Under the pieces are notes generated by a model, which had not been told where the DNA came from, made no database searches, and saw only the letters and a program-made list of their open reading frames with translations. Both the position numbers and the translations under genes were made by a program. Below, one piece after another: positions 1 through 38,628 of a stretch of 64,000 bases of DNA; positions within the stretch are counted from its first letter, which is position 1, and the number at the start of each line of letters is the position of its first letter. The stretch lies in contig OY970314.1 of NCBI GenBank assembly GCA_963716475.1, positions 564,790 to 628,789 on the forward strand, in the 5' to 3' direction. Source of the DNA: Candidatus Woesebacteria bacterium (lineage in GTDB: Bacteria > Patescibacteriota > Microgenomatia > UBA8517).

Positions 1-1542
1 TTTTCCGACGGGAGGAAATAGAAATTTTCCTTCTTTTGCTACGGTCCCGAATGGTTTAATTAGAGCCGTGTTTCTGGTACCGTCTTTTTGGAATAGGGAC
101 GGGGGATATTCAGACCAAGCCAAAAAGTACTTCAAAGAAGGCTCCCCTGCGCTGCTTATCATCACTTGATCATAATTTTTGGATTCGGAAATGGCCGAAC
201 TTACCATCTCCTGATACCCTGCCTGCCACCACCTCTCAGAATCCCAAGGATAATGGACAAAATAATAATGTAAATAATTAATAGTGCTCCAGAGAAGAAT
301 CCCCACAATTGCGAATGCCCAAACAAATTTAACATTTCCCTTCAGCAGCCTATAGACATAAACCAGTCCTATACTCGCTACGACTATTAAAGGAAAAACT
401 AACAAAAACTGCCTTGTTGCGTGATTTCCGCCGTCTTGAGTCAGAGCTCCGGGAATCGGGCTGGCGAAAAGAAGAAAAAGAAATGTATATTTTTCTTTAC
501 CTAAAATTGCTTTACGTCCGGTAAGAACAAAGCAAATGCCGGCAAGGATTAAGACAGATTCAACTGCGTATAATTCTCCCGAAGCGGAAGAGTTCTGACG
601 TGGGGAAGGATCTCCCTTTGTAAACAAAAAGTCCGTCGAAAAGGTTTCAAAATAGTTATCAATAAAAATGTTGCCAAAAACTATTAATTTGTTATGCAGA
701 ATTTTTCCAAGAAAAGGATTTTGGGATACATCGCCCATCTCCTGGTCTACTACACGGGGTGCCCCGATTTCCCCGCTTAAAGTCGGGTGATTAAATATAG
801 AAATAGAGTCGAAGCGGGCTACCCCTTGCCCAAAGACTGTATTTATAGCAAACGGAACGGTAATTAGTAAAAAAATTACAGAACTTATTACCAAATATAT
901 TTTCTTAATTTTAAAAATATCCTTGTGCCAAATCAAAAACATTGCGACAACAGTCAGGGGTAAAAATAATTTTGCGGTACTATAAATCCATGGCGTAAAA
1001 CCTAAAAGTATTGCCGTGGGTATAAGCCAAATATTTTTCCTTAGTCCATAAAGAAAAAACAGAATCCCTGCAAAGAAAAAGATGTAAAGCATGGTCGCTT
1101 CAAAACCCGCTCTGGAATAATGAATATGCCAGGGAAGTATTGATATTAGGATTGCAGAAATAAGTCCTATATATTTATTTTTAGTAAGCTCTTTGGTCAA
1201 AAAATAAGTTATCAGTATACCTAAAATACCAAATACTGCCGCAGGCAAACGAACGCCTAAGGAAGATATGCCAAAAAACGCTATTGTTGGAATGGATGCA
1301 TAAATGTATAAGGGGGTTCTCCATTCTGCCAAAGACTGAATATGCATGGGTAGAAAATTGCCTGAATAATCTCTGCCGGTTTTGAGAAGCGAAAGGGCCT
1401 GATAACCTACATCCAGCTCATCTCCAAAAAGGGAAACAGGATCTTTATCCAACCGATAAAGCCTTAAGAAAGATCCAAAAAAAATAGTAAAAACCAGGGA
1501 GATTAATATAAACCTTTTGTTCTTAATTATGTTACCCATCAT
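1..1542 (-). CDS. GT-C fold integral membrane glycosyltransferase, GT39/PMT_2-like (ArnT/Pmt family). The C-terminus runs off the window edge. Paralog of the next gene
   Basis: The ORF track omits it because there is no in-window stop. My translation from ATG at 1542 reads MMGNIIKNKRFILISLVFTIFFGSFLRLYRLDKDP...GDELDVGYQALSLLKTGRDYSGNFLP and stays open to position 1. The N-terminus is colinear with the 1539..3176 protein (RVYKITTLPMYGDELTTVYDTYSVLKTGHD). Its start overlaps the upstream stop as ATGA. Confidence 0.6.
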   Translation of the reverse strand, partial: MMGNIIKNKRFILISLVFTIFFGSFLRLYRLDKDPVSLFGDELDVGYQALSLLKTGRDYSGNFLPMHIQSLAEWRTPLYIYASIPTIAFFGISSLGVRLPAAVFGILGILITYFLTKELTKNKYIGLISAILISILPWHIHYSRAGFEATMLYIFFFAGILFFLYGLRKNIWLIPTAILLGFTPWIYSTAKLFLPLTVVAMFLIWHKDIFKIKKIYLVISSVIFLLITVPFAINTVFGQGVARFDSISIFNHPTLSGEIGAPRVVDQEMGDVSQNPFLGKILHNKLIVFGNIFIDNYFETFSTDFLFTKGDPSPRQNSSASGELYAVESVLILAGICFVLTGRKAILGKEKYTFLFLLFASPIPGALTQDGGNHATRQFLLVFPLIVVASIGLVYVYRLLKGNVKFVWAFAIVGILLWSTINYLHYYFVHYPWDSERWWQAGYQEMVSSAISESKNYDQVMISSAGEPSLKYFLAWSEYPPSLFQKDGTRNTALIKPFGTVAKEGKFLFPPVGK

Positions 1543-3176
1543 ACTTCTTTTTTAATAATAGACAACATTCGTTGACCTGTAGGGCTATAAACCCTGTTAA
1601 GTACCGTGCCTTCGACATTTTCAGTTACATCTATAACATATAAAACAGACCCGTTTATGCTGTTAATAAAATTAACAACTTCGTTATCGGGTATATTTGT
1701 GATATATACATTCCCAAATTTCTTAAACTTATATTTTCCGAAATCAAAAAGGGTTTTATTTGCAGCTATTACTATATTTGGATCAATTTTATTATAGACG
1801 GGGTACGCATATTGAATGTTGTCAATTTGATCGGATAAGAAAATGTAATCATATTGCCTCATATGATCATTAGCTATCCCTGCGGCCACCTCTGCAGGAT
1901 ATGACCAAAAGTTATAATACTTAACCGGCGAGAGAAAATAGAGTTTGTCTAAGAGGAATATAAACTGTAACAACCACGGAGCTCCTATCAGTAAAAAAAA
2001 CAAAAGTTTGTTTCTCCTATTTCTAATATCTGTAATCTCCGAAAGGCCAACTGCTGATAATAAAACAAGAGGTGGAAGCATAAATGAATCTCGTAAGGCG
2101 TGTGGTGTTATAAGGAGTGCGGCAGCCACGGGTGCAAGAAAGATCCAGGATACAAGAAAAATAAAGATTTTCCGGTTTTTATTCCAAAGAATCACTAGAC
2201 TTACAAGTATCAGCACTATCTCAACCAGATATAATTCTCCTATTCCCGTCATGTTATGGACAGGGTTCCCGTCCCCTGAAATAAACAAGAAGTTAAATGA
2301 TAAATTATCTAAGTAGGCATTTCTTAAAGAAACAAAATACTCAACCGGCCTATTATGAAAATATTGTGAGAGATTTTCCCCAATTGAATCAATAGATCTT
2401 TCAAAGTTAACTTTTTGAATTATTTGCTGTTTTATAGCCGGATCGGCAAATATATTAATATCGGTAAATCTTTGTTCAGATTTACCGAATAAAGTCTGTT
2501 GGACCGAAACAAGTACTGCAACCGCCCCTACTACTAAGGCAATTATCTTAAACCAACGATATCCTTTACTCAAAAAATTTCTAATGGCTCCTCTATCAAA
2601 CCAAATCAGAAGGGCGAGAATCAAAAACAAGGTAAGTTTATAAGTGGAATATGTATGTATGGAGAGTCCCCATGCGACTGCAAACCCCAAATAATATTTA
2701 GGGTTATCTTTGGCCATGAGAAAAAAAAGAAGCCCCAGGATAGCCAACATTAGGGCAAAATGGGCCTCAAATCCGCCTCTGGAAAGAGACAGGTCCCAAG
2801 GTGAAATTGCAATCAGAAAAGCTGCTATAAAACCGGTATTTTGGTTGAATAACCTCTTCCCCAAAAAATACATTATGACAATCATCCCGAGTCCCGAAAG
2901 AATCGAGAGGCTTCGGACTCCCAGTGCTGTTGGACCAAAAATAGCTACGAAAGGAATCGAGAAATAAATATATCCTGCCGGCCGTCCGGCACCCATTTGA
3001 AAAGTAATAGGGAGAAAATTCCCCAATTGATCATGACCGGTTTTAAGAACCGAGTAGGTATCATAAACCGTTGTCAGTTCGTCACCATACATCGGAAGTG
3101 TCGTAATTTTATAAACCCGAAGCAAAAACCCGAGCAGCAATATGCCAAAAAGAACCAAGATGGATTTACGGGACAT
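1539..3176 (-). CDS. GT39/PMT_2-like (ArnT/Pmt family) polytopic membrane glycosyltransferase
   Basis: 545 aa with about 12 predicted TM helices. It has a conserved first-loop acidic motif (YGDELTT) and an ArnT-like fold pattern with a C-terminal soluble domain. It is a paralog of the 1..1542 gene. Confidence 0.7.
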   Translation of the reverse strand: MSRKSILVLFGILLLGFLLRVYKITTLPMYGDELTTVYDTYSVLKTGHDQLGNFLPITFQMGAGRPAGYIYFSIPFVAIFGPTALGVRSLSILSGLGMIVIMYFLGKRLFNQNTGFIAAFLIAISPWDLSLSRGGFEAHFALMLAILGLLFFLMAKDNPKYYLGFAVAWGLSIHTYSTYKLTLFLILALLIWFDRGAIRNFLSKGYRWFKIIALVVGAVAVLVSVQQTLFGKSEQRFTDINIFADPAIKQQIIQKVNFERSIDSIGENLSQYFHNRPVEYFVSLRNAYLDNLSFNFLFISGDGNPVHNMTGIGELYLVEIVLILVSLVILWNKNRKIFIFLVSWIFLAPVAAALLITPHALRDSFMLPPLVLLSAVGLSEITDIRNRRNKLLFFLLIGAPWLLQFIFLLDKLYFLSPVKYYNFWSYPAEVAAGIANDHMRQYDYIFLSDQIDNIQYAYPVYNKIDPNIVIAANKTLFDFGKYKFKKFGNVYITNIPDNEVVNFINSINGSVLYVIDVTENVEGTVLNRVYSPTGQRMLSIIKKEV

Positions 3177-3184
3177 ATGTACAT

Positions 3185-3202
3185 TATAATTTAGCTGTGG
3201 AG
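3185..3202 (+). promoter_or_regulatory. candidate -10 box (TATAAT at 3185..3190) and GGAG ribosome-binding site (3199..3202) for the plus-strand membrane-protein gene. The divergent intergenic region is only about 35 nt
   Basis: TATAAT is read directly in the 3177..3211 gap. GGAG lies 9 nt upstream of the ATG at 3212, which is the likely real start. The tracked ORF starts at GTG 3197. Confidence 0.25.
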
Positions 3203-5059
3203 AAAATACTAATGGGGGGAATCGTCGGATTTGTCCTTTTTACACTAATTTCCTACGTGCTAATAGTGCTTAATATTCCATTTCTTATCATCCCAATTAC
3301 ACTTTTGGCAATTATTGTAGGTGCCAAACCTCTGGTGAAAACACTAAAACAAATCAAAATTAAATTTGACGGATTAACCATCCTAACCATAATTGTTTTC
3401 ATTGTCGGAATCGCCGGACAAATGCTGGTCATCTCCCCCAGCGGAATTTTTAAAAACGGGGACTTGCTTTTTTGGTCTTCTAACGGACACGACGGAGCCT
3501 GGCATATAGCACTGATGGAGGAGATAAAGAAAGGTTACCCGTTTCAAAACCCGGTTTTTGCAGGTGAAAAGCTTGTTAATTATCATTTCTTTTCGGATAT
3601 TGCGCCTGCAATAATTTCTAAATACCTCCCCTTATCCGACTTGAATTTATATTTCAGAATATTCCCTTTTATTTACTCCCTTTTCTTCGGTGTGTCTGCA
3701 TACTACCTTACTAAGAAAATTACGGATAGCCGCACCGCCGGGATCTGGGCAACTATTTTTACATATTTTGCGGGAAGCTTTGGATACATAATCGGTAAAG
3801 GTGAAAGTGTCTTCTGGGCAACTCAACCGCAAAGTGCCAGTGGAAATCCACCCCAAATAGTTTCTGATTTTATTCTAATGGCAGCACTTTACTTTCTGTT
3901 AGCGATGTTACAGAAAAATGAACACAAATATACATTCTGGATTTGTGTTCTTCTAACCGGCACCTTGGCTGAATTTAAAGTCTATGCTGCAATTGTAATT
4001 CTGGGGTCTCTATTTCTTGCCGGAATTTGGCAAATGCTAAGGGAGAGAAAAATTCAAATACTTCTTTTGACAATTCTTAGCGGAGCCCTTGCTGCAATTT
4101 TATATTTACCAAATTCGAGCGGATCGGTTTCTTTTCTGATTTTTCAACCCTGGTGGTATATCAGGACTATGATTGTCGAGCCTTCCCGCCTGAATTTATT
4201 GGACTGGGAACTTCGACGCCAAACATATATTTATGAACACAACTGGAAACGGGTGATATTTCTGGAAGGATTAGGATTTCTGATTTTCTTCTTCGGAAAC
4301 CTGGGAATGAGATTCGTTGGGCTTTGGGATGGCTTTAAATTTGTAAAAAGTTCCCTCAAGAATTATTTCAATTTAATTTTCATTTTAATTATCTTTTCTT
4401 CTTTAGTACTTCCGCTCTTGTTCCTGCAGAAAGGTGTTGCCAGTAATACCAGTCAATTCCTTCAATATTTCGTCCTTCTTATCGGAATACTTGCCGGTAT
4501 ATCGGTAGCAAGACTTATAAAATTTGTTAAATTTCCCGTCTTCCAGATACTTATAGCTCTGATATTTATAGCTACGATGATTCCTACTCAAATCGGTCTA
4601 CTTCGCGATTTCTACGGATCTCCCGGACATTTACGTCAGGCTTTTGCTAAAATTTCGGCATCCGAGATTCAAGCGCTTGGCTACATTAAAAACAACACTT
4701 CTCCGAAAACGGTCATTTTGACGCCCCCATATGATCAGTATCCGGAAGTCGGAGGTCTTACCCCAAACGTTTGGAACTGGTCTGATACCGGTTACGTTTC
4801 AGCATTTTCATCCAGAAGGACATATTTTGACGACCACGAACAGGTAGATATCATGGGTTATGAATGGAAAGGACGTCTAACGATAAAAGAGAAGATATTT
4901 AAGGAGAAGGACCCGAATATCTTCAGCCGGGAGGTTAATGAAACTAAGTCACAAATTCTGTATTTTCCTAAAGTTTTCCGCCCGCTGGTGGATCTGACAA
5001 AAACAGGGTTGACTAAGATTTATGAAAACTCTGAGGTAGAAGTCTGGAAAATAAGTTAG
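3197..5059 (+). CDS. polytopic membrane protein with C-terminal extracytoplasmic domain. Putative GT-C glycosyltransferase of an unnamed family B (paralog of 6791..8440)
   Basis: 620 aa with many TM helices. It shares the motif HDGAWHIALMEEIKKGYPFQNPVFAGEKLVNYHF with RDGVWHEALIGQLKLGIPPQNPGFAGVALTNYHY in the 6791..8440 protein. It is the only plus-strand gene in the GT-C block. The probable true start is ATG 3212 (MGGIVGF) after GGAG. Confidence 0.6.
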   Translation: MEKILMGGIVGFVLFTLISYVLIVLNIPFLIIPITLLAIIVGAKPLVKTLKQIKIKFDGLTILTIIVFIVGIAGQMLVISPSGIFKNGDLLFWSSNGHDGAWHIALMEEIKKGYPFQNPVFAGEKLVNYHFFSDIAPAIISKYLPLSDLNLYFRIFPFIYSLFFGVSAYYLTKKITDSRTAGIWATIFTYFAGSFGYIIGKGESVFWATQPQSASGNPPQIVSDFILMAALYFLLAMLQKNEHKYTFWICVLLTGTLAEFKVYAAIVILGSLFLAGIWQMLRERKIQILLLTILSGALAAILYLPNSSGSVSFLIFQPWWYIRTMIVEPSRLNLLDWELRRQTYIYEHNWKRVIFLEGLGFLIFFFGNLGMRFVGLWDGFKFVKSSLKNYFNLIFILIIFSSLVLPLLFLQKGVASNTSQFLQYFVLLIGILAGISVARLIKFVKFPVFQILIALIFIATMIPTQIGLLRDFYGSPGHLRQAFAKISASEIQALGYIKNNTSPKTVILTPPYDQYPEVGGLTPNVWNWSDTGYVSAFSSRRTYFDDHEQVDIMGYEWKGRLTIKEKIFKEKDPNIFSREVNETKSQILYFPKVFRPLVDLTKTGLTKIYENSEVEVWKIS

Positions 5060-5606
5060 AGTAAATACTTCTTATTATCATAATCTTACTTACAGGTTTA
5101 AAATATAGGACGATCGGAAGCCCCCCCGGATGTGTATCTTTATCGTAATTATAATGGTCTATCCAACTCGGCGGGTTTTGACTAAGAAAAACTTCAATCA
5201 GATCTTCGGGTCCTGCCCCGGGTGAGCTCAGGGTAAAAACATACACCTTATTTTCCGAATCAGGAATAGTATCAAATACAAATTTTACAAAACTACCATC
5301 CTGTACATTTTGGCCATTTATCACCGATGTTCTTATCGGGTTCATCTTATCATCGAAAAGATTCAATATAATGTCTTTCTTATTTTTTAAATTGGGGTTT
5401 TTTATTGACGTCCCTATCGCCGTCAGGTTTGCGTCCTGAGATGTAAACGTTTGGGTCACATTTCTAAAATCATAAATGCTCAACGTCTGGCTATAGCCTG
5501 GTTGATCGTCTCCGGGAATCAATTTTATCCCCAAGGCGAGTACGGCAGGAGCGACAAACACCAAAAATAATATTGTTATTGTAGTAAACCAGATTAGCTT
5601 TTTCAT
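5013..5606 (-). CDS. hypothetical signal-anchored secreted protein
   Basis: 197 aa with one N-terminal hydrophobic helix (MKKLIWFTTITILFLVFVAPAVLALG). No recognisable domain. Its 3' end overlaps the convergent gene by 47 nt. Confidence 0.4.
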   Translation of the reverse strand: MKKLIWFTTITILFLVFVAPAVLALGIKLIPGDDQPGYSQTLSIYDFRNVTQTFTSQDANLTAIGTSIKNPNLKNKKDIILNLFDDKMNPIRTSVINGQNVQDGSFVKFVFDTIPDSENKVYVFTLSSPGAGPEDLIEVFLSQNPPSWIDHYNYDKDTHPGGLPIVLYFKPVSKIMIIRSIYSNLFSRLLPQSFHKS

Positions 5607-5624
5607 AAAATTCTCTTTTTCGTA

Positions 5625-6791
5625 TTATGCCCCCTTAAAATTCTTGTACGTCATCACCAAACTTCCTGCTGCAAGTATCGAATGGAAAACAGCTATTATA
5701 TTATTGGGATCATAAACTTTCTGTATCACAGTAAACGGTGTAGGAAGCATATCGTACCATGTGCTAAATATCCTAAATAAAGAAATTGTCATAAACCTAT
5801 CTTGATAAAGAATGGGTATTGCAAAAGCTAGTATGCCAAAAAAGAATATCAGCCTGGAAAGGTTCGGTTTTTTTACTGATAAAATAACCAAAAAGGGAGC
5901 AATCCAAAGAAGCCACTGAATGTGAAATAGTGTGAAGGAAAAGATAATCAAAAATAATGTAACCCAATAATTAAAGACGTTCAATTTTTTATCGATAAGT
6001 ACTGCGTAAAAGAAAAGGATGGCGAGAGCCAAAGTTGTAAAATCAGACGTAAAAATGCCTGTGGTAAGCCCAGAAACCAGAGCTGATTGGAAAAAAGCCG
6101 TTGAGATAAACGGTAATACGATAACCCCAAAGATTATTATTGGAGTTGCGGCAAGAACGAATTTTTCCTTCACACTACGTCCCGACAAAAATAAAAATGG
6201 AACGAATAAAAGAGGATATAATTTAAATCCGGAAGCCAAACCGAGAATAAGCGAGGCGGAAAATAATTTTTGTTTTTTGATCATCAAAAATGCCAAGATC
6301 GTAAGTACTGCCGGAAAGATGTCTACGTTAGAAAATACATAAATCAGAACTATCGTGAAGGGGTTAAATAACCAAAATATATAAGCTTTTTTCTTATCTG
6401 CTTTGTTTTCAAAGAACTGCATTAGAAGAAACGCTACACCAATATCCAAAACCAAATACGGGAGCTTAAGCACAATAAGATACCTAAAGATATTCGGATT
6501 GTTAACAACAGAGTTGGCTCCGGCATCGGACAACCAAGATGTAAAGTTATTACCCAAAATCGGCGACACAATCCACTGATAGCCGCCTAAAGTAAAATAA
6601 GTCAAAGGAAAATAAACAAAATCATCTTTCAGCGGCAAAGATTTTTTATTATTAACCAGATAAGTGTAAATGTTAAAAACTCCCTTTTTCAGAAAAGATG
6701 CTTGATAATTGTAAGTTTTGATATCAGGGTGAAATAGAAACGCCGCCACCAAAACTCTTAAAAAAATTGCCAAAACCAGAAGTTTTTTCAT
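5625..6791 (-). CDS. polytopic membrane protein, DUF2029/GT87-like GT-C candidate (family C, paralog of 8437..9681)
   Basis: 388 aa. Shared block LKLPYLVLDIGVAFLL...FWLFNP...LILGLASGFKLYPLLF matches LKLPYLPFDIGTAFLL...FWIFNP...LLLGLGASFKIYPLLF in the paralog. Its start overlaps the upstream stop by 1 nt. Confidence 0.55.
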   Translation of the reverse strand: MKKLLVLAIFLRVLVAAFLFHPDIKTYNYQASFLKKGVFNIYTYLVNNKKSLPLKDDFVYFPLTYFTLGGYQWIVSPILGNNFTSWLSDAGANSVVNNPNIFRYLIVLKLPYLVLDIGVAFLLMQFFENKADKKKAYIFWLFNPFTIVLIYVFSNVDIFPAVLTILAFLMIKKQKLFSASLILGLASGFKLYPLLFVPFLFLSGRSVKEKFVLAATPIIIFGVIVLPFISTAFFQSALVSGLTTGIFTSDFTTLALAILFFYAVLIDKKLNVFNYWVTLFLIIFSFTLFHIQWLLWIAPFLVILSVKKPNLSRLIFFFGILAFAIPILYQDRFMTISLFRIFSTWYDMLPTPFTVIQKVYDPNNIIAVFHSILAAGSLVMTYKNFKGA

Positions 6792-8440
6792 TATTGTTCT
6801 ACCTCATATATGTTAACACTGTCATTTTCAAAAATCTTTTTCATGGAATACTCTCCCTCTGCCATTGGAAGCTGGTAAATCTTTGGTACATATACGTAAC
6901 GGATGTTATTACTCTTTAAAAACTGGTCGGACCAATTCAGATCTTTCTCGGTAAAAAAACGATCCGCCTCGTCAACCCTAACCGTATAATTTGTATTAAG
7001 AACAATCTGTTGTTCCGCATCCTCAATAAATACCGGCTTTCCTGAATATGCCGAAACATAGGCATTATCCGCATATACAAATAATGGGTATGGGTCGGTA
7101 TATTTATTTTTAAGGTTTGAGTCATAAGGGTGTTTTAAAATAACCCCGGGCGGTTCCAGTTTTAAAAAATTGAGCGCCTGATATTCCTTTAACGGTAAAT
7201 AAGCCGGCGGATTTGGGTAAAGTACGCTACGAAATGTGGCATATGAACTTATGGGAGTAATCAATAAAACTAAAACTAAAATAGGAATTGAAAACTTTGA
7301 CAACGCAAAAGCAGCATATAGACCCGTAAAATATAGAAAATAGTAAAAGAATTGAATAACATTCCAAGGGTTTCCTTTCTGGACAAAAAGAAGGGTGGGG
7401 AAGGTAGCAGCCCCCATCATCAGAAAGATAAAGAGATGAAGGTCAGACCTAAAAAACTTTTTACGAAGACCCCAGAGAGCGGTAATTCTTGTTCCCAAAT
7501 TTCCTACAAAAAATATTAATAAACTAATTAGCTCGATCGCACCGAAGCTTAACCACCTGTGTCCTCCAAAGTACGCAAAACGTCTTGCCGTAAAATTCGG
7601 AATGCCAACCCTATCCCCCGCATCTATCATTGTGTCAATTAACCAAAGCGGCTGAAATCCGATCAGACTTGCAGCGCCTTTCCCTATCGATAAATAAATA
7701 CCTATAAATATGACTGCCGAAAAAATGAAAACCGGCAACAAGGTATAATTTTTGTCAAAAAATATTTTCTTCAAAGTTAAGAAGAAGAGTGCGGCTATAA
7801 CTATCGCACCTGCATAAGCTTTAAACCCTACAAGTGCCCCCAATAAAACGGATAGCACCACTCCTTTAATCAGATTTGGTTTTTTAAGATAATTATCAAG
7901 AAGTATTACGCCAAATATTATTATCACCAGAGATATGGCATAAGGCGGATTGAGATTCATTGAAACCGGCTGGTTGGCCCAAAATGCCGATTCTCCGGCC
8001 AAAGGTTGGTGCTTAGCGAGACTTACTATCCAACCAAAACTACTTCCAAAATAGGCAAAAAATACCGCAAGTATACTTACCAGTTTACTGCCAAAAAGCC
8101 TTCGGGCGAGTAAATATGTCCCAATCCCTAAAAGAATCGAGAAAATTACCGGGAAAAACCGATATATGAGGAACGACGGGTTAATGGTAGATAATCTTGA
8201 AACAATTGCAACAAGTAAATCATAAAGATAGTGATAATTAGTAAGAGCCACTCCCGCAAACCCGGGGTTTTGTGGGGGAATACCTAATTTTAATTGACCG
8301 ATCAACGCTTCGTGCCAAACTCCATCCCGGGCCAATGGGCCAAAGTATCCGACACCATAATGATAAAGCTGGCCACTGCGAAACATGGCTACCCCCTGGA
8401 AAATTGTTCCCAAAATGGTTAAAACAATTAAAATAATCAT
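6791..8440 (-). CDS. family B polytopic membrane protein (paralog of 3197..5059), putative GT-C glycosyltransferase
   Basis: 549 aa. Shares the DGVWH...QNPGFAG motif and similar C-terminal soluble domain with 3197..5059. Confidence 0.6.
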   Translation of the reverse strand: MIILIVLTILGTIFQGVAMFRSGQLYHYGVGYFGPLARDGVWHEALIGQLKLGIPPQNPGFAGVALTNYHYLYDLLVAIVSRLSTINPSFLIYRFFPVIFSILLGIGTYLLARRLFGSKLVSILAVFFAYFGSSFGWIVSLAKHQPLAGESAFWANQPVSMNLNPPYAISLVIIIFGVILLDNYLKKPNLIKGVVLSVLLGALVGFKAYAGAIVIAALFFLTLKKIFFDKNYTLLPVFIFSAVIFIGIYLSIGKGAASLIGFQPLWLIDTMIDAGDRVGIPNFTARRFAYFGGHRWLSFGAIELISLLIFFVGNLGTRITALWGLRKKFFRSDLHLFIFLMMGAATFPTLLFVQKGNPWNVIQFFYYFLYFTGLYAAFALSKFSIPILVLVLLITPISSYATFRSVLYPNPPAYLPLKEYQALNFLKLEPPGVILKHPYDSNLKNKYTDPYPLFVYADNAYVSAYSGKPVFIEDAEQQIVLNTNYTVRVDEADRFFTEKDLNWSDQFLKSNNIRYVYVPKIYQLPMAEGEYSMKKIFENDSVNIYEVEQ

Positions 8441-9681
8441 ACCTGGTCAGTCCTTTTGGGGAAGTAATAATAAATATAAAAGGCAGCTACCGATACAAAA
8501 ACTGTCTGGAGAATGCTCCTCGCATAATTAATATCCACATTAATTCCTAAGCTTTGCCAAATACCAACCCGCCCGTAAAGTGAAGGAACTAAGGGTGAGA
8601 ACAGCCAGACGCTAAGACCCGGATCAAAAAAACTCACCTGACCAAGCCAAACAACCACTGCCAAAAGAGCCAGTGGCCAGTGTTTTAATTGTGATTTAAC
8701 TAAATCAATCACCAAAAACGGAGTCAACCAGGTAAACCATTGAGGATGAGTATGTGTAAAAATAAAGAATATGAGAATTACCACAAAAAATCTCTGCCAA
8801 AGATCACCAATCTTCGCTTTGTTGTAAAAGAAAACTATATATAAGAAAAGTATGAAAAGAGGGAAAAATATAATTGACTCCCCACCCGACACGGGAAGGG
8901 CCGCATAAAGACTTTTGGTTGTCTGTCCGGCGAGAAGAGCACTGCTCCTAAATCCGGAGGAGCCGATAAAGGGTAATATCCCGGCAACATAGGTTAACGC
9001 CCCGATTCCGACAATCTTTATGCGATCGGCCCACTTTTCCCTGAGAAGTGCAAGCGGAACCAAAAATAATAACGGATATATTTTAAAAGATGCTCCGAGA
9101 CCCAATAATAAAGAGGCAAAGAAATATTTTTCTTTCTTCACGGCAAGATAAAGTGCCGCAACCGTAATGAATGTAGGAATGATATCAAACTGTCCCATCA
9201 TGTAAGTTGCATATAAATTTACAGGATTAAATATCCAAAAAGTAAATGCCAGGAATTTATTTTTGGGGTTTTTAAAGAAATTAAAGAGTAAAAACGCGGT
9301 ACCTATATCAAACGGCAAATATGGAAGCTTGAGTGCCAGAAGAAGGAAGTTAAGCTGTAAATTCCCCAAGATCCCCGGCAAGTTAAAAATAAAATTATGA
9401 AGGATATCGCGGCTAAAAGGCAATGTTAACAAATGGGTTATCGGACCCAGGAAAAAATAAAATAAAGGCGGGTAGATAAAAAGATCCGTAGGATAAATCT
9501 TTAAGATCGGATCTGTTAGGGGAAGGTTTCTTAAATAATCATAGAAATTTAAGACATTGCCCTTGGCTATAACCTCGCCTGCATAATAGAATGCCTGGAT
9601 ATCCGAATGGAAGGTGGTAAAGGCCAAGAAGAAACGGACTAAAATTCCTATCACCAGAACTAAAATAATTTTTCTTTTCAT
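8437..9681 (-). CDS. family C DUF2029/GT87-like polytopic membrane protein (paralog of 5625..6791)
   Basis: 414 aa. See the shared motif block listed under 5625..6791. It has 4-nt ATGA overlaps on both sides. Confidence 0.55.
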   Translation of the reverse strand: MKRKIILVLVIGILVRFFLAFTTFHSDIQAFYYAGEVIAKGNVLNFYDYLRNLPLTDPILKIYPTDLFIYPPLFYFFLGPITHLLTLPFSRDILHNFIFNLPGILGNLQLNFLLLALKLPYLPFDIGTAFLLFNFFKNPKNKFLAFTFWIFNPVNLYATYMMGQFDIIPTFITVAALYLAVKKEKYFFASLLLGLGASFKIYPLLFLVPLALLREKWADRIKIVGIGALTYVAGILPFIGSSGFRSSALLAGQTTKSLYAALPVSGGESIIFFPLFILFLYIVFFYNKAKIGDLWQRFFVVILIFFIFTHTHPQWFTWLTPFLVIDLVKSQLKHWPLALLAVVVWLGQVSFFDPGLSVWLFSPLVPSLYGRVGIWQSLGINVDINYARSILQTVFVSVAAFYIYYYFPKRTDQV

Positions 9682-11246
9682 TTCTTTTTTCTAACAATAA
9701 TTGTAACGATAGCAAAAGCACTTAGCAAAGAAATTATATCGAATATTCCCCTAAACAATGTTTCTCTAAAGACAATCTTCACTTCGTGTTGACCTCCCGG
9801 TACGCTAAACTCTATCTGACCGTATGGTTTAGCAGCAGTAACCTGAACACTTTTGCCGTCAACCCAAGCCTGCCATCCCGGGAAATAGTATTTGTAATAA
9901 TCAAAAGTTGTGTCTTTTGTATAACTTACGTTGAAAATTGCATCCATCCCGGGATTTGGAGAAACTTTGTCGGGGCGTACCTCTGTGGCAACCGGAAGCC
10001 GGAGGTATTCTTCCTGCGTTTTTAAATATTCGGCGGATGCGGTGGGATAAGGAATATACCTATTTATATAATATTCATCGGTTCTACCCAAAAAATCCTG
10101 CGGTTTATAGTCAGTAAAATTAAGTGCAATTGCAGCGATTATTATAATAATACCGATGATTTTCCCAAATTTAATCTTGTCAAATACCAACACTAATATT
10201 GAAGTTGCAAACGTAGTTAAACTTAAAAATCTCCAAGGAAACTGAAAATAAGGCAAAAGAGGTACCAAATTCCAAATAAATGTTGATCTGTAATTCATCA
10301 TAAATACCGAGACACCAATCATCACAAGTGCCCAAGCCGTTACTTTATTTAATTTCTTGAAAAACACTATGGCAAGAATAATCAGGGCGATATTGACCGA
10401 TCCTAAAAAGAAACTCATGCCATCGTAAGGCCCGGGAACACTTGCTCCATAGCCAAAATACGGGGTAATCAGCTGTTTTAGTGTCGGAAAGTGATCAATA
10501 AAATTGAAAACAGTGTCATATTTCATCAATTTACTTTCGACAATTGCGGGCAGCCAAAAATACGAACTTAGCGTTAGACCCAAGGCAAATCCGTAAATCG
10601 ACCGCGCTATACCTTTCCACTGCCAAACGGCAAGGAGTACCAAAAACGGAACAAACATATAAGCCATAATGTTGTGTGACAATATGAGTCCGGCCGTTCC
10701 AATTGCCAGAAGTCCTATCCATTTAATTGATTTACCTTTACCAATTTTTGTAATTGCATAGGCAGCCATCGGTGGAAAAATAAATGCCAAGATTTCACCA
10801 ATAGAACCCCTGACATAAATATCGGTCGCCCGGTACGGTGTATAGATATACAAAACCGCGCCGGCAAGAGCTAGAATTCCCCCTGAGTGCTCTCTTAAAA
10901 ATTTGTACATCAGGTACATTGAAAAAGGCACACTCATAAAAAATACAGCCTTAATACAATCGACAAAGTTTAAACCCAACTTATGAAAAATTTCCCCGAT
11001 ATAGAAAGGCAGCGGAAAAACAAAATTAAAAAGCGGATAACCGAAACCAAAACTCAGATCCGGAACAAATCTCGGGGGAAACATACTCAAGCTTAATGTT
11101 CTATTCATTTCGTAAAGCCAGCCGATGTGTAAATCATCACTGGCACCATAAAAGCCATGAACAAAAAGTGCCCAAACCGCGGGAATGGTCAGCACAAGAG
11201 CTATCAAGAATGAATATTTATTTACGAATTTTTCAACTTTTTCCAT
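9678..11246 (-). CDS. YfhO-like polytopic membrane protein (GT-C candidate, family D, copy 1 of 3)
   Basis: 522 aa. N-terminal loop motif ASDDLHIGWLYEM...RFVPDLSFGFGYPLFNF. The C-terminal beta-rich domain ends with GGQHEVKIVF. Copies 2 and 3 have the same architecture. Confidence 0.5.
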   Translation of the reverse strand: MEKVEKFVNKYSFLIALVLTIPAVWALFVHGFYGASDDLHIGWLYEMNRTLSLSMFPPRFVPDLSFGFGYPLFNFVFPLPFYIGEIFHKLGLNFVDCIKAVFFMSVPFSMYLMYKFLREHSGGILALAGAVLYIYTPYRATDIYVRGSIGEILAFIFPPMAAYAITKIGKGKSIKWIGLLAIGTAGLILSHNIMAYMFVPFLVLLAVWQWKGIARSIYGFALGLTLSSYFWLPAIVESKLMKYDTVFNFIDHFPTLKQLITPYFGYGASVPGPYDGMSFFLGSVNIALIILAIVFFKKLNKVTAWALVMIGVSVFMMNYRSTFIWNLVPLLPYFQFPWRFLSLTTFATSILVLVFDKIKFGKIIGIIIIIAAIALNFTDYKPQDFLGRTDEYYINRYIPYPTASAEYLKTQEEYLRLPVATEVRPDKVSPNPGMDAIFNVSYTKDTTFDYYKYYFPGWQAWVDGKSVQVTAAKPYGQIEFSVPGGQHEVKIVFRETLFRGIFDIISLLSAFAIVTIIVRKKK

Positions 11247-12877
11247 AAATAGATTACTAGCAAGAATCCAAAAAGGCTTCCGGCAGACAAAATGTTTGCA
11301 AAAGTTCTTATGGTTGTGTTTTCAAACTCCCCTTTGACATGATACTCTCCTTTTCCCAGATTAATCTCAATCCTTCCCAAAACATTGTTATGAGAGTGAG
11401 AAAATACTTTATCGTTAACAATAACGGTCCAGTTCGGAAAATCGAAAACCGGGACAACTATACTTGAATCCTGTGTAACATTGACATCAAATTCCCATCG
11501 GTCTGACTTATTGACAAAGTTTGTTATAACTCCCGTACCCTGGGCAAAAAACGGAGATGCCGGAGCCGGTTCTCTCGGTTCCAACGCAGTTTTCGGCAAA
11601 TAATCCAAAAGAGCACCGGCCTGCTGATCGATAAAACTTTGCCCTGAAAGTAGCTCCTGATCTGTCAAATTATAATAAAAGTGCTCCGGTCTAAAGTACT
11701 GCCAATTTAAAAGAATCGCCAAAAAAATGATAATAGCTGCAATGATTGGTACCCATTTATCTTTCATTAATGAGACAAAATACGCACCAATCAGACTACC
11801 TGAGAAAATTACGATAGATAAAAACCGCCACGGAAATTGAACATAGGCCAGAATCTTTATAAATTCCCAAATCGGTGCAGATTTGTTATGCGTCATCAAT
11901 AGTGCCAATGCGAACATGGAAAGTAACAATACAAAAAGCGATATATTCTTCCTTTTTTTAGTAATTAATACCCAAATAATGGACACAACTACCAGCCACC
12001 AAAGCGGCCAACCTATTTGATAAGAAAGGGTAATCCGGGATTGAGGTTGAGATCCTGTGTAGTTCCAGGATCTGTCAATAAATAGCTGCGATACTTTGAC
12101 AAACTGAGCCCTGAAGTCTAATTCCGCCCGAGTTAGGGCTTCTGTTTGTACCAAACCCTTTTCGAAAAACGCCGGAAGTGTGAAAAATGCCGCAATTCCA
12201 AAAGCTAACCCAAAACATAACAGAGAAATTTTTAAACCCTTCCATTTTTCTATATACAGCCAATATAATACCCAAACAATAATTAACGGTGTAAAGATTA
12301 GTATCATAATATTGTGCGACACAAAGAATATGAAAGTCGAAATTGTAGCCAAGGCAAAATACTTTTTGTCTCTTATTTTTATCAAACGCAAGTAGAAGAA
12401 AAAGACAAAAGGAATAATAGCAAGCGCAAAACTCTCCCCCACTGCACCCCTAACGTATGAATCTAATGCTCTATACGGAGCAAAAAGAAAAAGAATAGCC
12501 CCCACAAGTCCTGGGGCTTTCCCAAAAAGATCTTTGGCCAAAAAATACATTCCGACTGCTCCAAAAACCAATGGCAAGAAAAACAGAAATTTAGCAGCAC
12601 CAATATAACCCAATACAAAACTGGCAACCGCTCCTACATAGTAGGCAACGGGGCCGTAGAAATTGAAAAGCGGATAACCGTTACCATAGCCCATGTCGGG
12701 AACCCACCTGCAGGGGATTTGTAAATCGGTAAAACATTTCCTCATTTCAAAAATGCGTATTACCTGAAGATTATCTTGATGAGAAAAATATCCCGGAATA
12801 AAAAGCGGCCATATAACCAAGCCGGATAGAGCAAAAATGAATATTAAAGGCCAATTATTTAGAAAGAACTTTTTCAT
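11222..12877 (-). CDS. YfhO-like polytopic membrane protein, family D copy 2
   Basis: 551 aa. Motif HQDNLQVIRIFEM...IPCRWVPDMGYGNGYPLFNFY. The C-terminus ends with GKGEYHVKGEF. Confidence 0.5.
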   Translation of the reverse strand: MKKFFLNNWPLIFIFALSGLVIWPLFIPGYFSHQDNLQVIRIFEMRKCFTDLQIPCRWVPDMGYGNGYPLFNFYGPVAYYVGAVASFVLGYIGAAKFLFFLPLVFGAVGMYFLAKDLFGKAPGLVGAILFLFAPYRALDSYVRGAVGESFALAIIPFVFFFYLRLIKIRDKKYFALATISTFIFFVSHNIMILIFTPLIIVWVLYWLYIEKWKGLKISLLCFGLAFGIAAFFTLPAFFEKGLVQTEALTRAELDFRAQFVKVSQLFIDRSWNYTGSQPQSRITLSYQIGWPLWWLVVVSIIWVLITKKRKNISLFVLLLSMFALALLMTHNKSAPIWEFIKILAYVQFPWRFLSIVIFSGSLIGAYFVSLMKDKWVPIIAAIIIFLAILLNWQYFRPEHFYYNLTDQELLSGQSFIDQQAGALLDYLPKTALEPREPAPASPFFAQGTGVITNFVNKSDRWEFDVNVTQDSSIVVPVFDFPNWTVIVNDKVFSHSHNNVLGRIEINLGKGEYHVKGEFENTTIRTFANILSAGSLFGFLLVIYLWKKLKNS

Positions 12878-14573
12878 TCTGTTTTAACTTTAACGCTAAA
12901 TAAATAATAACTCCAAAGCTTACCAATGTAATAATGTTTCCGATCCTCCTGTCCAATGTGTCGGTTAGTTTTGCTTCTACCATATGTTGACCTACCGATA
13001 AATTAAATGTGATTAGGCCTAAACAATATCTCTCACCGATACAGTCGTTATTTACATGAGGAACGACCTTGCCATCAACCTTGACCTCCATTCCCGGAAA
13101 ATCAAAAAGGGGAAGACGAACTAGAGAATCATTTGAAACCTCAACTACACCAGTTTGAAAATCACTCCCCTTTTTGTATTCCAAAAACTTAACGTTTCCT
13201 TTTAAAACTTCAGGTAAGTCAGGAGCTTTCGAATATGGAGGAAGTGTTGCGTAAATCGGTAAGTAGTCAAAAATGCTGATCGTAAGCTGCTTTTCCCACG
13301 AATCACCGGAAAATTTATCAGCATCAGTAATATTCAGCCACGTCTTGGGAACAAAATAATTAATGGTTAACGCAAAAGAGGCTGATACTAAAATTATTCC
13401 TAATAAATATTTATACTTTCCGGCTAAATAAACCAGAAGCCCGGTAAGTAAACAAAGTAAAAATATTGATACCGCCAAAAACCTCCAAGGAAATTGCATA
13501 TACCATAATATCGGAAGGTGTGCCCAGATAAAACTCGACTTCATATGAATCATAAAGATGCTGGCAAGAGTTACTCCGACTAAACCTAAAATCAAAAGTG
13601 AGATTTTTTTGTATTTTTTGAATCCAATAAGGGCTATAACCGGTGCAATAATTAGACCGGAAATCCACTGGACCATCCCGAGTGACAAATTAAGTTTTTC
13701 ATTTGGAAATCCGGATGAGCCATATCCCCATTCCCTTGAAATAAATAGTTTATACAAACTCACGAAATGCTGACGGTAATCAAAATATCCTGACAAAAGA
13801 CCTTCAGTATGGGTAAACTGCCTCTCCAAAAGAACCGGTAAAACAAAAAAGGCTGAAAGCCCGAATCCTAAAATTCCCCCCCAGACAATTTTCATCAGGT
13901 TCTTCCACTTATTTTGGTAAAGCCAGAATGCTGCCCAAAGGACTGCAACCGGTACAAAAATCATGGTCATTAGTACATGCGTCGTCATGAGGAGGAAAAT
14001 AGAAATGCACATCCATATTAGATACTTTGTTTTACCTGTTTTAATTAATTTATATATCGCCCAAAGGATTAGGGGAAAGAATATTTGTGCCCAAAACTCA
14101 CTCAAAGCACCCCGCACATAAACCTCTACTGCTTTATAGGGAATATAAGTATAGATAAGCGCAGCAACAAGACCTGCCCATTTATCATTCGAAATACTCC
14201 TGACAAGAATATATATAGTTACTGCGGAGAGGATATATCCCAAAATAAAGAGGATTTTTACAGTATCAATATATTGGAAACCAATCCTGTGCAAACCCGC
14301 TCCAAGATAATATGGCAGGGGCGGGTAGAAATTAAACTGCGGATAACCGTACTGATATCCCGCATCCGGCACCCACCTGCAGGGAATTTGAAGATCGGTG
14401 TAACATTTATCCATTTCATAAACCCTGAAGGCCTGCAAATCATCCTGCATCGGGAAAAAACCGGATTTAAAAAGCTTTGAATAAGTCGGGATTGTCAATA
14501 TGACCAAAGCAAAAATAGGTATTAGCCGCCTCCACCAATTGCCGGATTTAGATATTATTTTAAGCATATCCAT
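12855..14573 (-). CDS. YfhO-like polytopic membrane protein, family D copy 3
   Basis: 572 aa. Motif MQDDLQAFRVYEM...IPCRWVPDAGYQYGYPQFNFY. The C-terminus ends with VGQHMVEAKL. Confidence 0.5.
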   Translation of the reverse strand: MDMLKIISKSGNWWRRLIPIFALVILTIPTYSKLFKSGFFPMQDDLQAFRVYEMDKCYTDLQIPCRWVPDAGYQYGYPQFNFYPPLPYYLGAGLHRIGFQYIDTVKILFILGYILSAVTIYILVRSISNDKWAGLVAALIYTYIPYKAVEVYVRGALSEFWAQIFFPLILWAIYKLIKTGKTKYLIWMCISIFLLMTTHVLMTMIFVPVAVLWAAFWLYQNKWKNLMKIVWGGILGFGLSAFFVLPVLLERQFTHTEGLLSGYFDYRQHFVSLYKLFISREWGYGSSGFPNEKLNLSLGMVQWISGLIIAPVIALIGFKKYKKISLLILGLVGVTLASIFMIHMKSSFIWAHLPILWYMQFPWRFLAVSIFLLCLLTGLLVYLAGKYKYLLGIILVSASFALTINYFVPKTWLNITDADKFSGDSWEKQLTISIFDYLPIYATLPPYSKAPDLPEVLKGNVKFLEYKKGSDFQTGVVEVSNDSLVRLPLFDFPGMEVKVDGKVVPHVNNDCIGERYCLGLITFNLSVGQHMVEAKLTDTLDRRIGNIITLVSFGVIIYLALKLKQNEKVLSK

Positions 14574-14576
14574 TTT

Positions 14577-15473
14577 TTAAAATCTGGAAAATATTGCCTC
14601 ATCAGAAATCTTAGCTTCTTTCATCTCTTTACTTCTTTCCCTGATAATAACGTCAACCCTTCCTAGGGCCATTAAAACTACCCTTATATATCCGGGGTGT
14701 TTAGCTAATCTTTTAACCAGACCGACCACGTGCTTTCTGAAAAGATTCGTACTTGTAAGGTCTTTCCAGATAAAAAGAAGCTGATTCCGTTCCAATATTC
14801 TCTGAACATATTTCTTGGGAAAACCGCTTATAGTAGCTTCATGCATGTGCGCAACTTTTGCATCGGGGTCCCAAATAAGTTTATACCCTCTTTTAAGAGC
14901 GCGATAACATAAATCAACATCTTCCCAATAAAAAGGCGATAAAAGTTTTTCATCCATTCCGGTTAGTTCCATCCAAATACTTCTTCTAAAAACCCCACTA
15001 CCCCCACTGACCCAAAAAGTATCATGCGGGGTTGGTGTTTTTGGACCGGTAGAATGCCCAACGAATCCGTCAATAAAGAATCCTCGTGCCCATCCGAGAT
15101 CTCCAATTTCATTTAAGGAAACTGCAAAAACCTTTGGTTCTTGGAAATGTGAAAAAACAGATTCCAAAAAATTGTTTTCCGGCATCACATCAGAATTAAG
15201 AAGACATATCAAATCCCCTTTTGCAGCTCTGACTCCCGTATTTACAGTCGCTGAAAAACCTCTATTTATTTTATGTTTGACTAGCTTTATTTCGGGGAAC
15301 TTTGAAGTAATCATCTTCACACTGTTGTCCCGTGATCCGTCATCTACAACAATAATTTCTTCCATGCAGTTTCCCGGATTACCTTTTGCCAGAAAAAGTG
15401 ACGGCAAATTTTTTTCCAATAATTTTTCGCCATTGAAGTTTGGGATAATCACCGAAACTGTAAAATTATTCAT
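14577..15473 (-). CDS. family 2 glycosyltransferase (GT-A fold)
   Basis: Motifs VSVIIPNFNGEKLL, VVDDGSRDNS and LLNSDV (DxD-type) are present. Confidence 0.8.
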   Translation of the reverse strand: MNNFTVSVIIPNFNGEKLLEKNLPSLFLAKGNPGNCMEEIIVVDDGSRDNSVKMITSKFPEIKLVKHKINRGFSATVNTGVRAAKGDLICLLNSDVMPENNFLESVFSHFQEPKVFAVSLNEIGDLGWARGFFIDGFVGHSTGPKTPTPHDTFWVSGGSGVFRRSIWMELTGMDEKLLSPFYWEDVDLCYRALKRGYKLIWDPDAKVAHMHEATISGFPKKYVQRILERNQLLFIWKDLTSTNLFRKHVVGLVKRLAKHPGYIRVVLMALGRVDVIIRERSKEMKEAKISDEAIFSRF

Positions 15474-16123
15474 TTTCTGACTTTAATTAAATACAGCATT
15501 CCAAGAAGAAACTTCTTATTGATAACTATTTTAAAACCGGTTTTTTTTGAAATCTCAGCCAAATAGTTCCCTCTATAAGTTTGAATATGAGTATCTCTCC
15601 AAACCTTACCTCTCGGATAAAACCTGAGCCACAAAAACCAAACTATCCGGAAAAGCAAACTGTCAGAAGGAACCAAAAAAACAGCATATCCATTTCTATT
15701 CAGAACTCTTTTTACTTCATTCAACACTTTAATGGGATCAAAAACATGCTCCAAAACCTCTAAGGCAAATACTGCATCAAAGCTCTCCGAATTAAACGGA
15801 AGCTTGTGGGCATCCGCAACCATAAATTTCATTTTTCCCGTTTTTCCCCAATGGCTTTCTGCCCAATCCACGGTTTTTTTGACCACGTCTATGCCCACCA
15901 GCTGATCTGCGCCGGAAGCGTCAAGAACAACCTTTGAAAAGGTCCCGTCATTACAGCCTATGTCCAAAATCTTACCTTCTACAGGTTCTGCCACGGCAGA
16001 TACTTCTTCAAATCTTCTTTTGTGCCAAAACCTTTGCAATATATCCACCTTTATCGACTCAAAATACCAATCTTCCGGAACATTTCCGTGAAGCTTTTCT
16101 GCAGTGATCTTGCCATTTTTCAT
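15470..16123 (-). CDS. class I SAM-dependent methyltransferase
   Basis: ILDIGCNDGTFS is the glycine-rich motif I. An acidic motif II and the motif FALEVLEHVFDP follow. Confidence 0.8.
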   Translation of the reverse strand: MKNGKITAEKLHGNVPEDWYFESIKVDILQRFWHKRRFEEVSAVAEPVEGKILDIGCNDGTFSKVVLDASGADQLVGIDVVKKTVDWAESHWGKTGKMKFMVADAHKLPFNSESFDAVFALEVLEHVFDPIKVLNEVKRVLNRNGYAVFLVPSDSLLFRIVWFLWLRFYPRGKVWRDTHIQTYRGNYLAEISKKTGFKIVINKKFLLGMLYLIKVRK

Positions 16124-17154: not shown

Positions 17155-17158
17155 GTTC

Positions 17159-29738: not shown

Positions 29739-29760
29739 AGACAAATGATACAATATCATT

Positions 29761-33950: not shown

Positions 33951-33959
33951 ACGAGGCTA

Positions 33960-36417: not shown

Positions 36418-36425
36418 TATTTATA

Positions 36426-37160: not shown

Positions 37161-37179
37161 AGATAATGTATATTATATC

Positions 37180-37680: not shown

Positions 37681-37716
37681 AGTAGGCTCAAATTATACGC
37701 TTTTTGTACCTTGAAG

Positions 37717-38616: not shown

Positions 38617-38628
38617 GATTGAAGTATA

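Follow-up and report, generated by a model that had tools for sequence, protein, structure and literature searches.

Organisation of the gene array

A 64-kb stretch (the window, to which all coordinates refer) of a ~0.98-Mb contig from the ~1 Mb genome of a Candidatus Woesebacteria groundwater bacterium, a member of the Microgenomates in the Candidate Phyla Radiation (CPR), begins with a dense array of genes for glycosyltransferases of the GT-C type, which probably builds an elaborate cell-surface glycan outside the membrane. Positions 1-14573 contain ten open reading frames (ORFs), o1 to o10, that encode nine polytopic proteins and one membrane-anchored protein (o4). Hydropathy analysis gives 6-14 peaks in o1-o3 and o5-o10, and a single N-terminal helix in o4. 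The first-pass annotation of this DNA had counted ten polytopic proteins; its inventory of two, two, two and three family members and a lone anchored protein is correct, but the polytopic proteins number nine. The genes are as follows:

<1-1542, minus strand: o1, family A GT-C (PMT/PMT_2-like), C-terminus truncated by the window edge
1539-3176, minus strand: o2, family A GT-C (PMT_2-like), with a PMT_2 match and a weak STT3 match
3197-5059, plus strand: o3, second paralog of the predicted GT-C family B, 30% identical to o6, with two additional N-terminal transmembrane helices (TMs)
5013-5606, minus strand: o4, membrane-anchored beta-sandwich protein of 197 aa with a predicted carbohydrate-binding module (CBM)-like fold and one N-terminal TM
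5625-6791, minus strand: o5, family C GT-C (GT87/PIG-M-like), from Pfam and 35% identity to o7
6791-8440, minus strand: o6, predicted family B GT-C of an unannotated, oligosaccharyltransferase (OST)-like family; its first outer loop carries the invariant DGxWH motif, and its C-terminal globular domain is AglB-S-like
8437-9681, minus strand: o7, family C GT-C (GT87/PIG-M-like), from Pfam
9678-11246, minus strand: o8, family D GT-C (PF10131-like), from a sub-threshold Pfam score and paralogy to o9
11222-12877, minus strand: o9, family D GT-C (PF10131), from Pfam PTPS_related
12855-14573, minus strand: o10, family D GT-C (PF10131), from Pfam PTPS_related and 38% identity to o9

The minus-strand genes are closely packed. 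Coding sequences overlap by 4 nt at o2/o1 (ATGA), o8/o7 and o7/o6, by 1 nt at o6/o5, and by 23 and 25 nt at o10/o9 and o9/o8, and 18 nt separate o5 from o4. The plus-strand gene o3 converges on o4, the coding ends overlapping by 47 nt (5013-5059), and is divergent from o2, with 20 nt between the two (3176-3197) and a TATAAT-like sequence inside. Since o3 is on the opposite strand, the single transcript proposed in the first-pass annotation is impossible, and there must be at least three transcription units. Promoters must lie within coding sequence because the spacing of o3, o2 and o4 is tight and the inverted o3 is kept in 19 other loci; scans for promoters and terminators gave a signal scarcely above the shuffled expectation.

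Two start sites deserve comment. An ATG at 3212 is another possible start of o3, and the exact o3 product is missing from the sequence collection, probably owing to a differing choice of start (GTG 3197 versus ATG 3212). The public (NCBI/ENA) copy of o9 has 490 aa, as against 551 aa in the ORF and in the Logan gene call. The public start is probably too late, because the 490-aa call would drop TM1 and the invariant D35 of the first loop.

The run of GT-C genes extends past 14573, with PMT_2-type genes at 20285-21844, 21826-23229 and 24975-26489. Positions 1-14573 are the downstream end, and the extracytoplasmic half, of a ~40-kb, mostly minus-strand cell-surface glycan locus that contains at least 12 GT-C genes from at least four families in 28 kb. 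The earlier annotation had the ORFs in their right places but understated the extent of the system.

Four paralog families

All-vs-all BLASTP sorts the polytopic proteins into the four paralog families that had been proposed from the letters of the sequence: A (o1/o2; 30% identity, E 4e-45), B (o3/o6; 30% identity, E 5e-78), C (o5/o7; 35% identity, E 5e-37) and D (o8/o9/o10; 28-38% identity, E 5e-60 for o8/o9 to 2e-108). The first description is likewise borne out for the alternation C-B-C (o7-o6-o5) and for the triplet of D genes (o10-o9-o8).

Families A, C and D were assigned with Pfam at its gathering cut-offs (22.7 bits for PMT, PF02366; 26.1 for PMT_2, PF13231; 25 for GT87, PF09594; 23.4 for Mannosyl_trans, PF05007; 26.4 for PTPS_related; and 28.5 for YfhO). 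The original labels of GT39/Pmt-type for A and DUF2029/GT87 for C hold at these cut-offs, A being GT83/GT39-like. In family A, o1 scores 40.2 bits with PMT and 36.6 bits with PMT_2, and o2 48.3 bits with PMT_2. Among PDB sequences the family A profile also finds weak matches, to STT3 at E 0.005 and to ArnT at E 0.15; families C and D find none there. In family C, both proteins exceed the cut-offs for GT87 (formerly DUF2029) and the PIG-M family Mannosyl_trans, with 35.3 and 27.2 bits for o5 and 35.7 and 37.4 bits for o7. In family D, o9 (54.8 bits) and o10 (30.2 bits) match PF10131 (PTPS_related); o8 is below the cut-off at 21.1 bits, yet it is a clear paralog of o9 (E 5e-60). The name YfhO-like, given to family D at first, can be kept as a loose label only, as PF10131 is the matching family and YfhO (PF09586) is matched by o10 alone, at 18.9 bits and under its cut-off. 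A true YfhO-domain gene (774 aa) adjoins the array in one relative (L001) and is absent from the window.

PMT, PMT_2, GT87, STT3 and PTPS_related all belong to the Pfam clan GT-C, CL0111 (PMC7801869). Because the Pfam scores are modest (27-55 bits), o8 is sub-threshold and none of the array proteins reaches an NCBIfam cut-off, A, C and D are regarded as divergent, CPR-specific subfamilies. In the family alignments, all four families have invariant acidic residues 25-40 residues in, right behind TM1: D32-E33 in A, D39 in B, D27 in C and D35 in D. The catalytic Asp of GT-C enzymes sits in the first loop after TM1, and from the topology these acidic residues are predicted to face the outside of the membrane.

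Family B

Family B comprises more than 1800 sequence clusters and is a GT-C family that had gone unannotated. Neither o3 nor o6 has a Pfam match, even at E 5, or an NCBIfam match, and searches of PDB sequences with single sequences and with the family profile returned chance matches of the G protein-coupled receptor type and no OST. A database search recovered 156 relatives, all "hypothetical" and none with a Pfam domain; those that are named belong to Candidatus Woesebacteria and, in the case of o6, are 73-74% identical. Searching 1.84 billion representatives with the profile gave 1843 relatives at E<=1e-3, 944 of them at E<=1e-30. The DGxWH motif, by which the family was first recognized, is real: across 42 aligned sequences D39, G40 and H43 never vary, and W42 is kept in at least 90%. 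Every residue that is invariant in the family alignment is kept in o3.

An AlphaFold2 model of o6, made with the 42-sequence alignment, has a predicted local distance difference test (pLDDT) score of 88.2 and a predicted template modelling (pTM) score of 0.87, and contains ~11 long hydrophobic helices (DSSP, hydropathy). In a Foldseek search with this model, ranks 1-21 are AglB, STT3 and PglB, with DPY19 among them (E 1.6e-8 to 1e-5), and AftA and ArnT (~1e-4) and Pmt4 (7e-3) come at lower ranks. AftB, AftD, PimE, ALG3, ALG9 and ALG12 are also matched. The likeness to OSTs takes in the C-terminal globular core domain, which is AglB-S-like. Alignment of profiles with hhalign links B weakly to family A, the PMT_2-like one (probability 79%, E 1.6e-5), and shows no relationship of B to C or D. 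The Foldseek ranking and the hhalign link mark B as a genuine GT-C family with an architecture nearest to the oligosaccharyltransferases. A polymerase or ligase of the Wzy/WaaL type was considered for B and rejected, there being no such structures among the Foldseek matches.

Family B is not filed as an OST because the WWDYG motif is absent and the STT3 model is unmatched. None of the 42 aligned sequences contains WWD, the region reading KHP(F/Y)D...VYADNAYVSA, and Pfam STT3 (PF02516) does not match the family even at E 5. B may still work like an OST. An OST-type catalytic constellation consists of an Asp in EL1, a second acidic motif, the Glu of TIXE/SVSE in EL5 and a basic residue for the pyrophosphate. 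By sequence alone, the candidates for these residues are D39, E150 (GGES), the T270-M271-I272-D273 stretch of the long loop that follows TM7, and the arginines R277 and R318.

The anchored protein o4

The 205 homologs of o4 are all hypothetical and none has a Pfam domain; o4 itself gives nothing meaningful against Pfam at E up to 5. In its model (pLDDT 88.4) a membrane helix leads into a beta-sandwich (about residues 30-170), and an amphipathic helix forms the C-terminus; by model comparison the predicted fold resembles that of CBMs. In all 22 of the related loci that have o4, the gene is directly behind an o5-type C gene. It has been speculated in a review that small GT-C enzymes may require a separate acceptor-binding protein (PMC8035078), and o4 is a candidate for such a partner of the o5-type enzyme.

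Conservation across Microgenomates

The array was followed in other organisms by a scan with one genome per species, the loci being annotated by hidden Markov models built from the window families. Family B is present in 72 species-level loci from Woesebacteria, Daviesbacteria, Collierbacteria and other Microgenomates, which have a mean of 7.9 GT-C ORFs per locus of <=21.7 kb. D genes are upstream of B in 67 of these 72 loci. The order o10>o9>o8>(o7)>o6 recurs, with Daviesbacteria ORFs 45-55% identical to a specific window paralog, and the module o5>o4>o3 (inverted) recurs in 19 loci. Positional orthologs of the array genes in other lineages are 45-80% identical (45-77% for o8).

Since the orthologs are 45-80% identical whereas the window paralogs are 28-38% identical, the duplications predate the divergence of the lineages, that is, the Woesebacteria/Daviesbacteria split. 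As to the paralog dating and the synteny comparison suggested in the first-pass annotation, the duplications are ancient, and the order is kept in Microgenomates loci. Recent tandem duplication is rejected on the low paralog identity and the positional orthologs in other lineages. That every copy was retained argues for distinct, non-redundant reactions.

In 60 of the 72 loci the flippase gene wzx is the next gene upstream of o6-type B, and in one representative, P0122 (1639 aa), Wzx, an N-terminal domain and family B are joined in a single protein. This extracytoplasmic N-domain of ~450 aa is fused to o6-type B in 57 of the 72 species (loci L014 and L016-L075; proteins P0121, P0123, P0127 and others). 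It is conserved, with a signal peptide and motifs that include NPVRG..FWD, AWW.DSYSL, QANDY and GLENSY, and it has no Pfam match, no PDB-sequence match and no homolog in the window. Five relatives encode fusions of a GT2 enzyme to family D (PF10131), in L003 (4362-6773), L008, L010, L013 and L015. Such fusions connect, in Rosetta-stone fashion, a synthase of sugar-lipids in the cytoplasm with an outer-face transferase.

Set beside these loci, the window array is a rearranged version, in which B has lost the N-domain and wzx has moved ~10 kb off. It is also a reduced version, because the Daviesbacteria-type arrays (L018, L021, L028-L057) carry extra paralogs that are absent from the window: a fourth D gene, with o8/o7 on one side and wzx on the other, and a third subtype of B, which follows the o6-type gene directly and has its best match in o3 (33-43% identity).

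Many of the contigs that carry the array, from TPA assemblies, are titled "uncultured Gammaproteobacteria" or "uncultured Pseudomonadales", and one "Spirochaetia" (L007, L010, L012-L014, L017, L025 and others); their gene content suggests that these are placeholder or wrong labels.

The remainder of the glycan locus

Upstream of the array, the locus continues with the following genes:

14577-18782, minus strand: GT2, S-adenosylmethionine-dependent methyltransferase, GT4, GT2-like and GT2 genes (cytoplasmic tailoring), from Pfam, directly upstream of the array
18798-20285, minus strand: Wzx/MOP-type flippase (Polysacc_synt_3 178 bits; MOP flippase and O-glycosylation flippase models)
20285-21844, minus strand: o17, PMT_2 GT-C (PMT_2 40.6 bits)
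21826-23229, minus strand: o18, PMT_2-like GT-C, no Pfam match at E up to 5 (BLASTP to o21 25% identity, E 2e-20)
23243-24043, minus strand: small GT2, polyprenyl-phosphate-sugar-synthase-like; nearest NCBIfam models PgfS and dolichyl-phosphate hexose transferase, below cut-off
24975-26489, minus strand: o21, PMT_2 GT-C (PMT_2 52.4 bits)
26471-27187, minus strand: ArnC-like small GT2 overlapping o21 (GT2 101.7 bits); nearest NCBIfam model undecaprenyl-phosphate Ara4FN transferase
27232-28392, plus strand: o23, 386-aa protein with ~10 TMs and no Pfam match, the second plus-strand gene of the locus
28596-29903, minus strand: GT2 fused to a GtrA/DPMS transmembrane domain (Glycos_transf_2 91 bits, GtrA_DPMS_TM 50.7 bits)
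30384-33950, minus strand: rhamnosyltransferase-like GT2 genes, from Pfam (TIGR01556 rhamnosyltransferase 100.8 bits, below cut-off)
33960-37160, minus strand: rmlD, rmlC, rmlB and rmlA, from Pfam
beyond rmlA, within 30384-40816, minus strand: GalU-like nucleotidyltransferase, from Pfam
38886-39824, minus strand: CAP-domain protein, from Pfam
39824-40816, minus strand: NAD-dependent epimerase, from Pfam

The first GT2 gene (14577-15473) is separated from o10 by 3 nt. The three small GT2s (23243-24043, 26471-27187 and 28596-29903) show NCBIfam likenesses to ArnC, PgfS, dolichyl-phosphate hexose transferase and PpgS. Together o21 and the ArnC-like GT2 look like a classic donor-synthase/GT-C pair, and the GT2-GtrA fusion would combine a synthase with a putative flippase-type domain. 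The product of 27232-28392, for which Pfam offers nothing meaningful at E up to 5, weakly resembles an NCBIfam model, the [quoted passage not shown] (E 7e-9, sub-threshold), and could be an additional glycan-handling membrane enzyme. The region 30384-40816 is predicted to supply the nucleotide sugars and to form the cytoplasmic portion of the locus. Past the epimerase are envelope and division genes (VanZ, a lamin-tail or LTD protein, PcsB-like, FtsX and FtsE), and then housekeeping genes.

Stretches rich in Ser, Thr and Pro (53-77% S/T/P in 30 aa, e.g., TPSPTPTPTP) occur in four envelope proteins that are secreted or anchored: the CAP protein (38886-39824), the LTD protein (41241-42353), a LytR_C protein (47347-48003) and an anchored FKBP-type peptidyl-prolyl isomerase (49694-50203). 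Such linkers are common, and they are possible acceptors for O-glycosylation; the streptococcal O-glycoproteins PrsA and LytR/BrpA are parallel protein classes (PMC12041528).

A few other genes may be recorded. A DHH/DHHA1 phosphoesterase gene (23973-24968) is situated between the GT2/GT-C pairs within the glycan locus, and a PF04308 RNaseH-like gene (37180-37680) between rmlA and the GalU-like gene. The lysyl-tRNA synthetase of the window (57398-58963) is of the class I type (PF01921), the usual form in archaea and one that a minority of bacteria share.

A model for glycan assembly

With a probability of roughly 0.78, the array represents a greatly expanded, uncharacterised form of multi-component transmembrane glycosylation that is part of a surface-glycan locus. 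The underlying scheme, from GT-A synthase to flippase to GT-C enzyme, has been established in Gram-positive bacteria, for both wall polymers and proteins (PMC8035078, PMC12041528). A dense run of GT-C enzymes from four families acting outside the cytoplasm, the central claim of the first-pass annotation, is upheld by the Pfam GT-C matches and by the model of B.

From the gene context we infer the donors, the acceptors, the order of the reactions and the role of o4 as follows. In the cytoplasm, rmlABCD, the GalU-like enzyme and the epimerase would make nucleotide sugars, and the GT2, GT4 and methyltransferase enzymes would assemble a lipid-linked glycan. The three small GT2s (ArnC-, PgfS- and DPM1-like) would load polyprenyl phosphate with single sugars. 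Wzx and the GtrA-type domain would then bring the lipid-linked donors across the membrane to its outer face, where the nine GT-C transferases (at least 12 in the whole locus) would act, each presumably adding a different sugar or linkage, as every paralog is matched by a conserved ortholog of its own in other lineages. Use of lipid-phosphate-linked donors by these enzymes is suggested by the synthase-like GT2s, Wzx, the GtrA domain and the GT2-D fusions. Family B, which is coupled genetically to Wzx, most likely handles the Wzx-flipped glycan, either transferring it to the final acceptor or decorating it, and o4 probably holds the glycan acceptor for the neighbouring o5-type GT87-like enzyme. 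The acceptors could be a rhamnose-containing wall or surface polysaccharide, the Ser/Thr/Pro-rich linkers of envelope proteins, or both.

Several points weigh against this model: i) for A, C and D the GT-C fold is deduced from Pfam membership, the structural models covering B and o4; ii) the small GT2s score far under the NCBIfam equivalog cut-offs; iii) wzx is not adjacent to B in the window, being ~10 kb from o6; and iv) the 64-kb window contains no initiating phosphoglycosyltransferase of the WecA/WbaP type and no LCP ligase catalytic domain.

Alternative readings

A more specific role for B is possible, at less than even odds: that of a side-chain monosaccharide transferase of the GacL type, with a GacK-like Wzx that flips a polyprenyl-phosphate-monosaccharide, the sugar being added to a rhamnose-containing wall polysaccharide. 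Monophosphate donors, which most bacterial GT-C enzymes use, would be in keeping with this role, as would the presence of rmlABCD and rhamnosyltransferase-like GT2s within the locus. A Wzx-type flippase beside a rhamnan-decorating GT-C has been proposed for S. pyogenes GacK/GacL (PMC8035078). However, OSTs stand above the ArnT/PMT-type enzymes in the structural ranking, the locus has no ABC transporter for a rhamnan backbone, and the large N-domain found on B in most species is without counterpart in GacL-type systems.

Nearly as likely is a role of B as an en-bloc oligosaccharyltransferase, a WWDYG-less relative of STT3/AglB/PglB. In that case D, C and A would extend a Wzx-flipped polyprenyl-PP-oligosaccharide on the outside and B would transfer the finished glycan to protein or wall. 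OST catalytic subunits, with DPY19, take the first 21 places in Foldseek, ahead of ArnT and AftA; B comes right after wzx in 60 of the 72 species and is fused to it in P0122; and the order D...D>(C)>(wzx)>B is kept in 67 of the 72 loci. On the other side are the replacement of WWDYG by the stretch HP(F/Y)D...YADNAY and the failure of both the STT3 model, even at E 5, and sequence-level PDB searches to find B. D39, E150, D273 and R318 are putative equivalents of the PglB catalytic residues.

The same odds go to the proposition that the array serves mainly for protein O-glycosylation of the Pmt or Pgf type, the acceptors being the Ser/Thr/Pro-rich linkers of anchored envelope proteins and not a polysaccharide. 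Family A is PMT/PMT_2-like, small GT2s resemble PgfS, and the nearby S/T/P-rich CAP, LTD, LytR_C and FKBP proteins parallel the streptococcal glycoproteins PrsA and LytR/BrpA (PMC12041528). But the needs of the known O-glycosylation systems are far exceeded by at least 12 GT-Cs, Wzx, rml and the many GT2/GT4 genes, and the CBM-like partner o4 suggests a glycan acceptor. The S/T/P-rich linkers, for their part, are common in general.

It is rather unlikely that Microgenomates hold a bacterial counterpart of the lumenal ALG-plus-OST pathway of eukaryotes and archaea, with a fixed series of D, C and A reactions on a Wzx-flipped polyprenyl-PP-oligosaccharide followed by en-bloc transfer to a non-sequon protein or wall acceptor by B, which would then be a far-diverged STT3/AglB homolog lacking WWDYG. 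The ALG3/9/12/6/8/10 enzymes extend a lipid-linked glycan in the lumen of the endoplasmic reticulum. The ~450-aa N-domain and o4 would, in such a pathway, act as acceptor-handling modules.

It is extremely improbable that these polytopic proteins, even o3 and o6 with no family match, are transporters or permeases, or recent redundant duplicates without distinct functions, since the first transporter comes at Foldseek rank 34 with a probability of 0.16 and none is among the significant B matches, A, C and D match GT-C Pfam families, and the paralogs, 28-38% identical with positional orthologs at 45-80%, have all been kept. Transporter folds or a lack of GT-C matches had been named beforehand as the contrary outcome; a transporter or permease identity is contradicted by the Pfam GT-C matches, the structural matches of B and the positional orthologs.

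Comparison with known systems

The model of expanded transmembrane glycosylation places the array next to GtrA/GtrB/GtrV, CsbB/GtcA/YfhO, ArnC/ArnT, GacI-J-K-L and PgfS/PgfM1, which follow the same logic of GT2 synthase, GtrA or Wzx flippase and outside GT-C (PMC8035078). GT2/GT-C gene pairs and fusions are shared with these multi-component systems. They have one or two GT-Cs, however, whereas here there are at least 12 in conserved order, and with them a Pfam-less family (B) and a dedicated CBM-like anchored partner.

Compared with STT3/AglB/PglB (GT66), family B lacks WWDYG and an STT3 match and has ~11 TM helices instead of the 13 of OSTs. It is found in CPR bacteria, mostly fused to the extracytoplasmic N-domain. 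The mycobacterial cell-wall EmbA/B/C, AftA-D, PimE and GT87 enzymes and the eukaryotic ALG series likewise comprise many GT-C paralogs, which work in turn on a single growing, lipid- or wall-linked glycan with polyprenyl-phosphate-sugar donors, and the likeness extends to individual families: Aft, PimE and ALG3/9/12 are among the structural matches of B, and family C is GT87-like. The mycobacterial and eukaryotic GT-C genes are largely dispersed, whereas those described here form a single conserved array in a ~1 Mb genome.

Implications

The Pfam-matching families add new members to kinds already known. New in themselves are the conserved array with at least 12 GT-Cs, the Wzx-coupled OST-like family B and the CBM-like partner; a literature search (CPR with GT-C, OST or mannosyltransferase) found no description of the array or of family B. 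CPR bacteria, or Patescibacteria, are tiny, mostly uncultured and host-dependent; their surfaces mediate attachment, and their envelope chemistry is almost unknown. The ~40 kb of a ~1 Mb genome given to this locus, with at least 12 GT-C transferases, and the fixed order of the array across class-level lineages argue for a central role of an elaborate, externally assembled glycan in the biology of these bacteria. Family B, with its OST-like architecture in bacteria and tight linkage to Wzx, is a concrete candidate for a new glycan-transfer reaction, and adds a data point on how STT3-type enzymes evolved.

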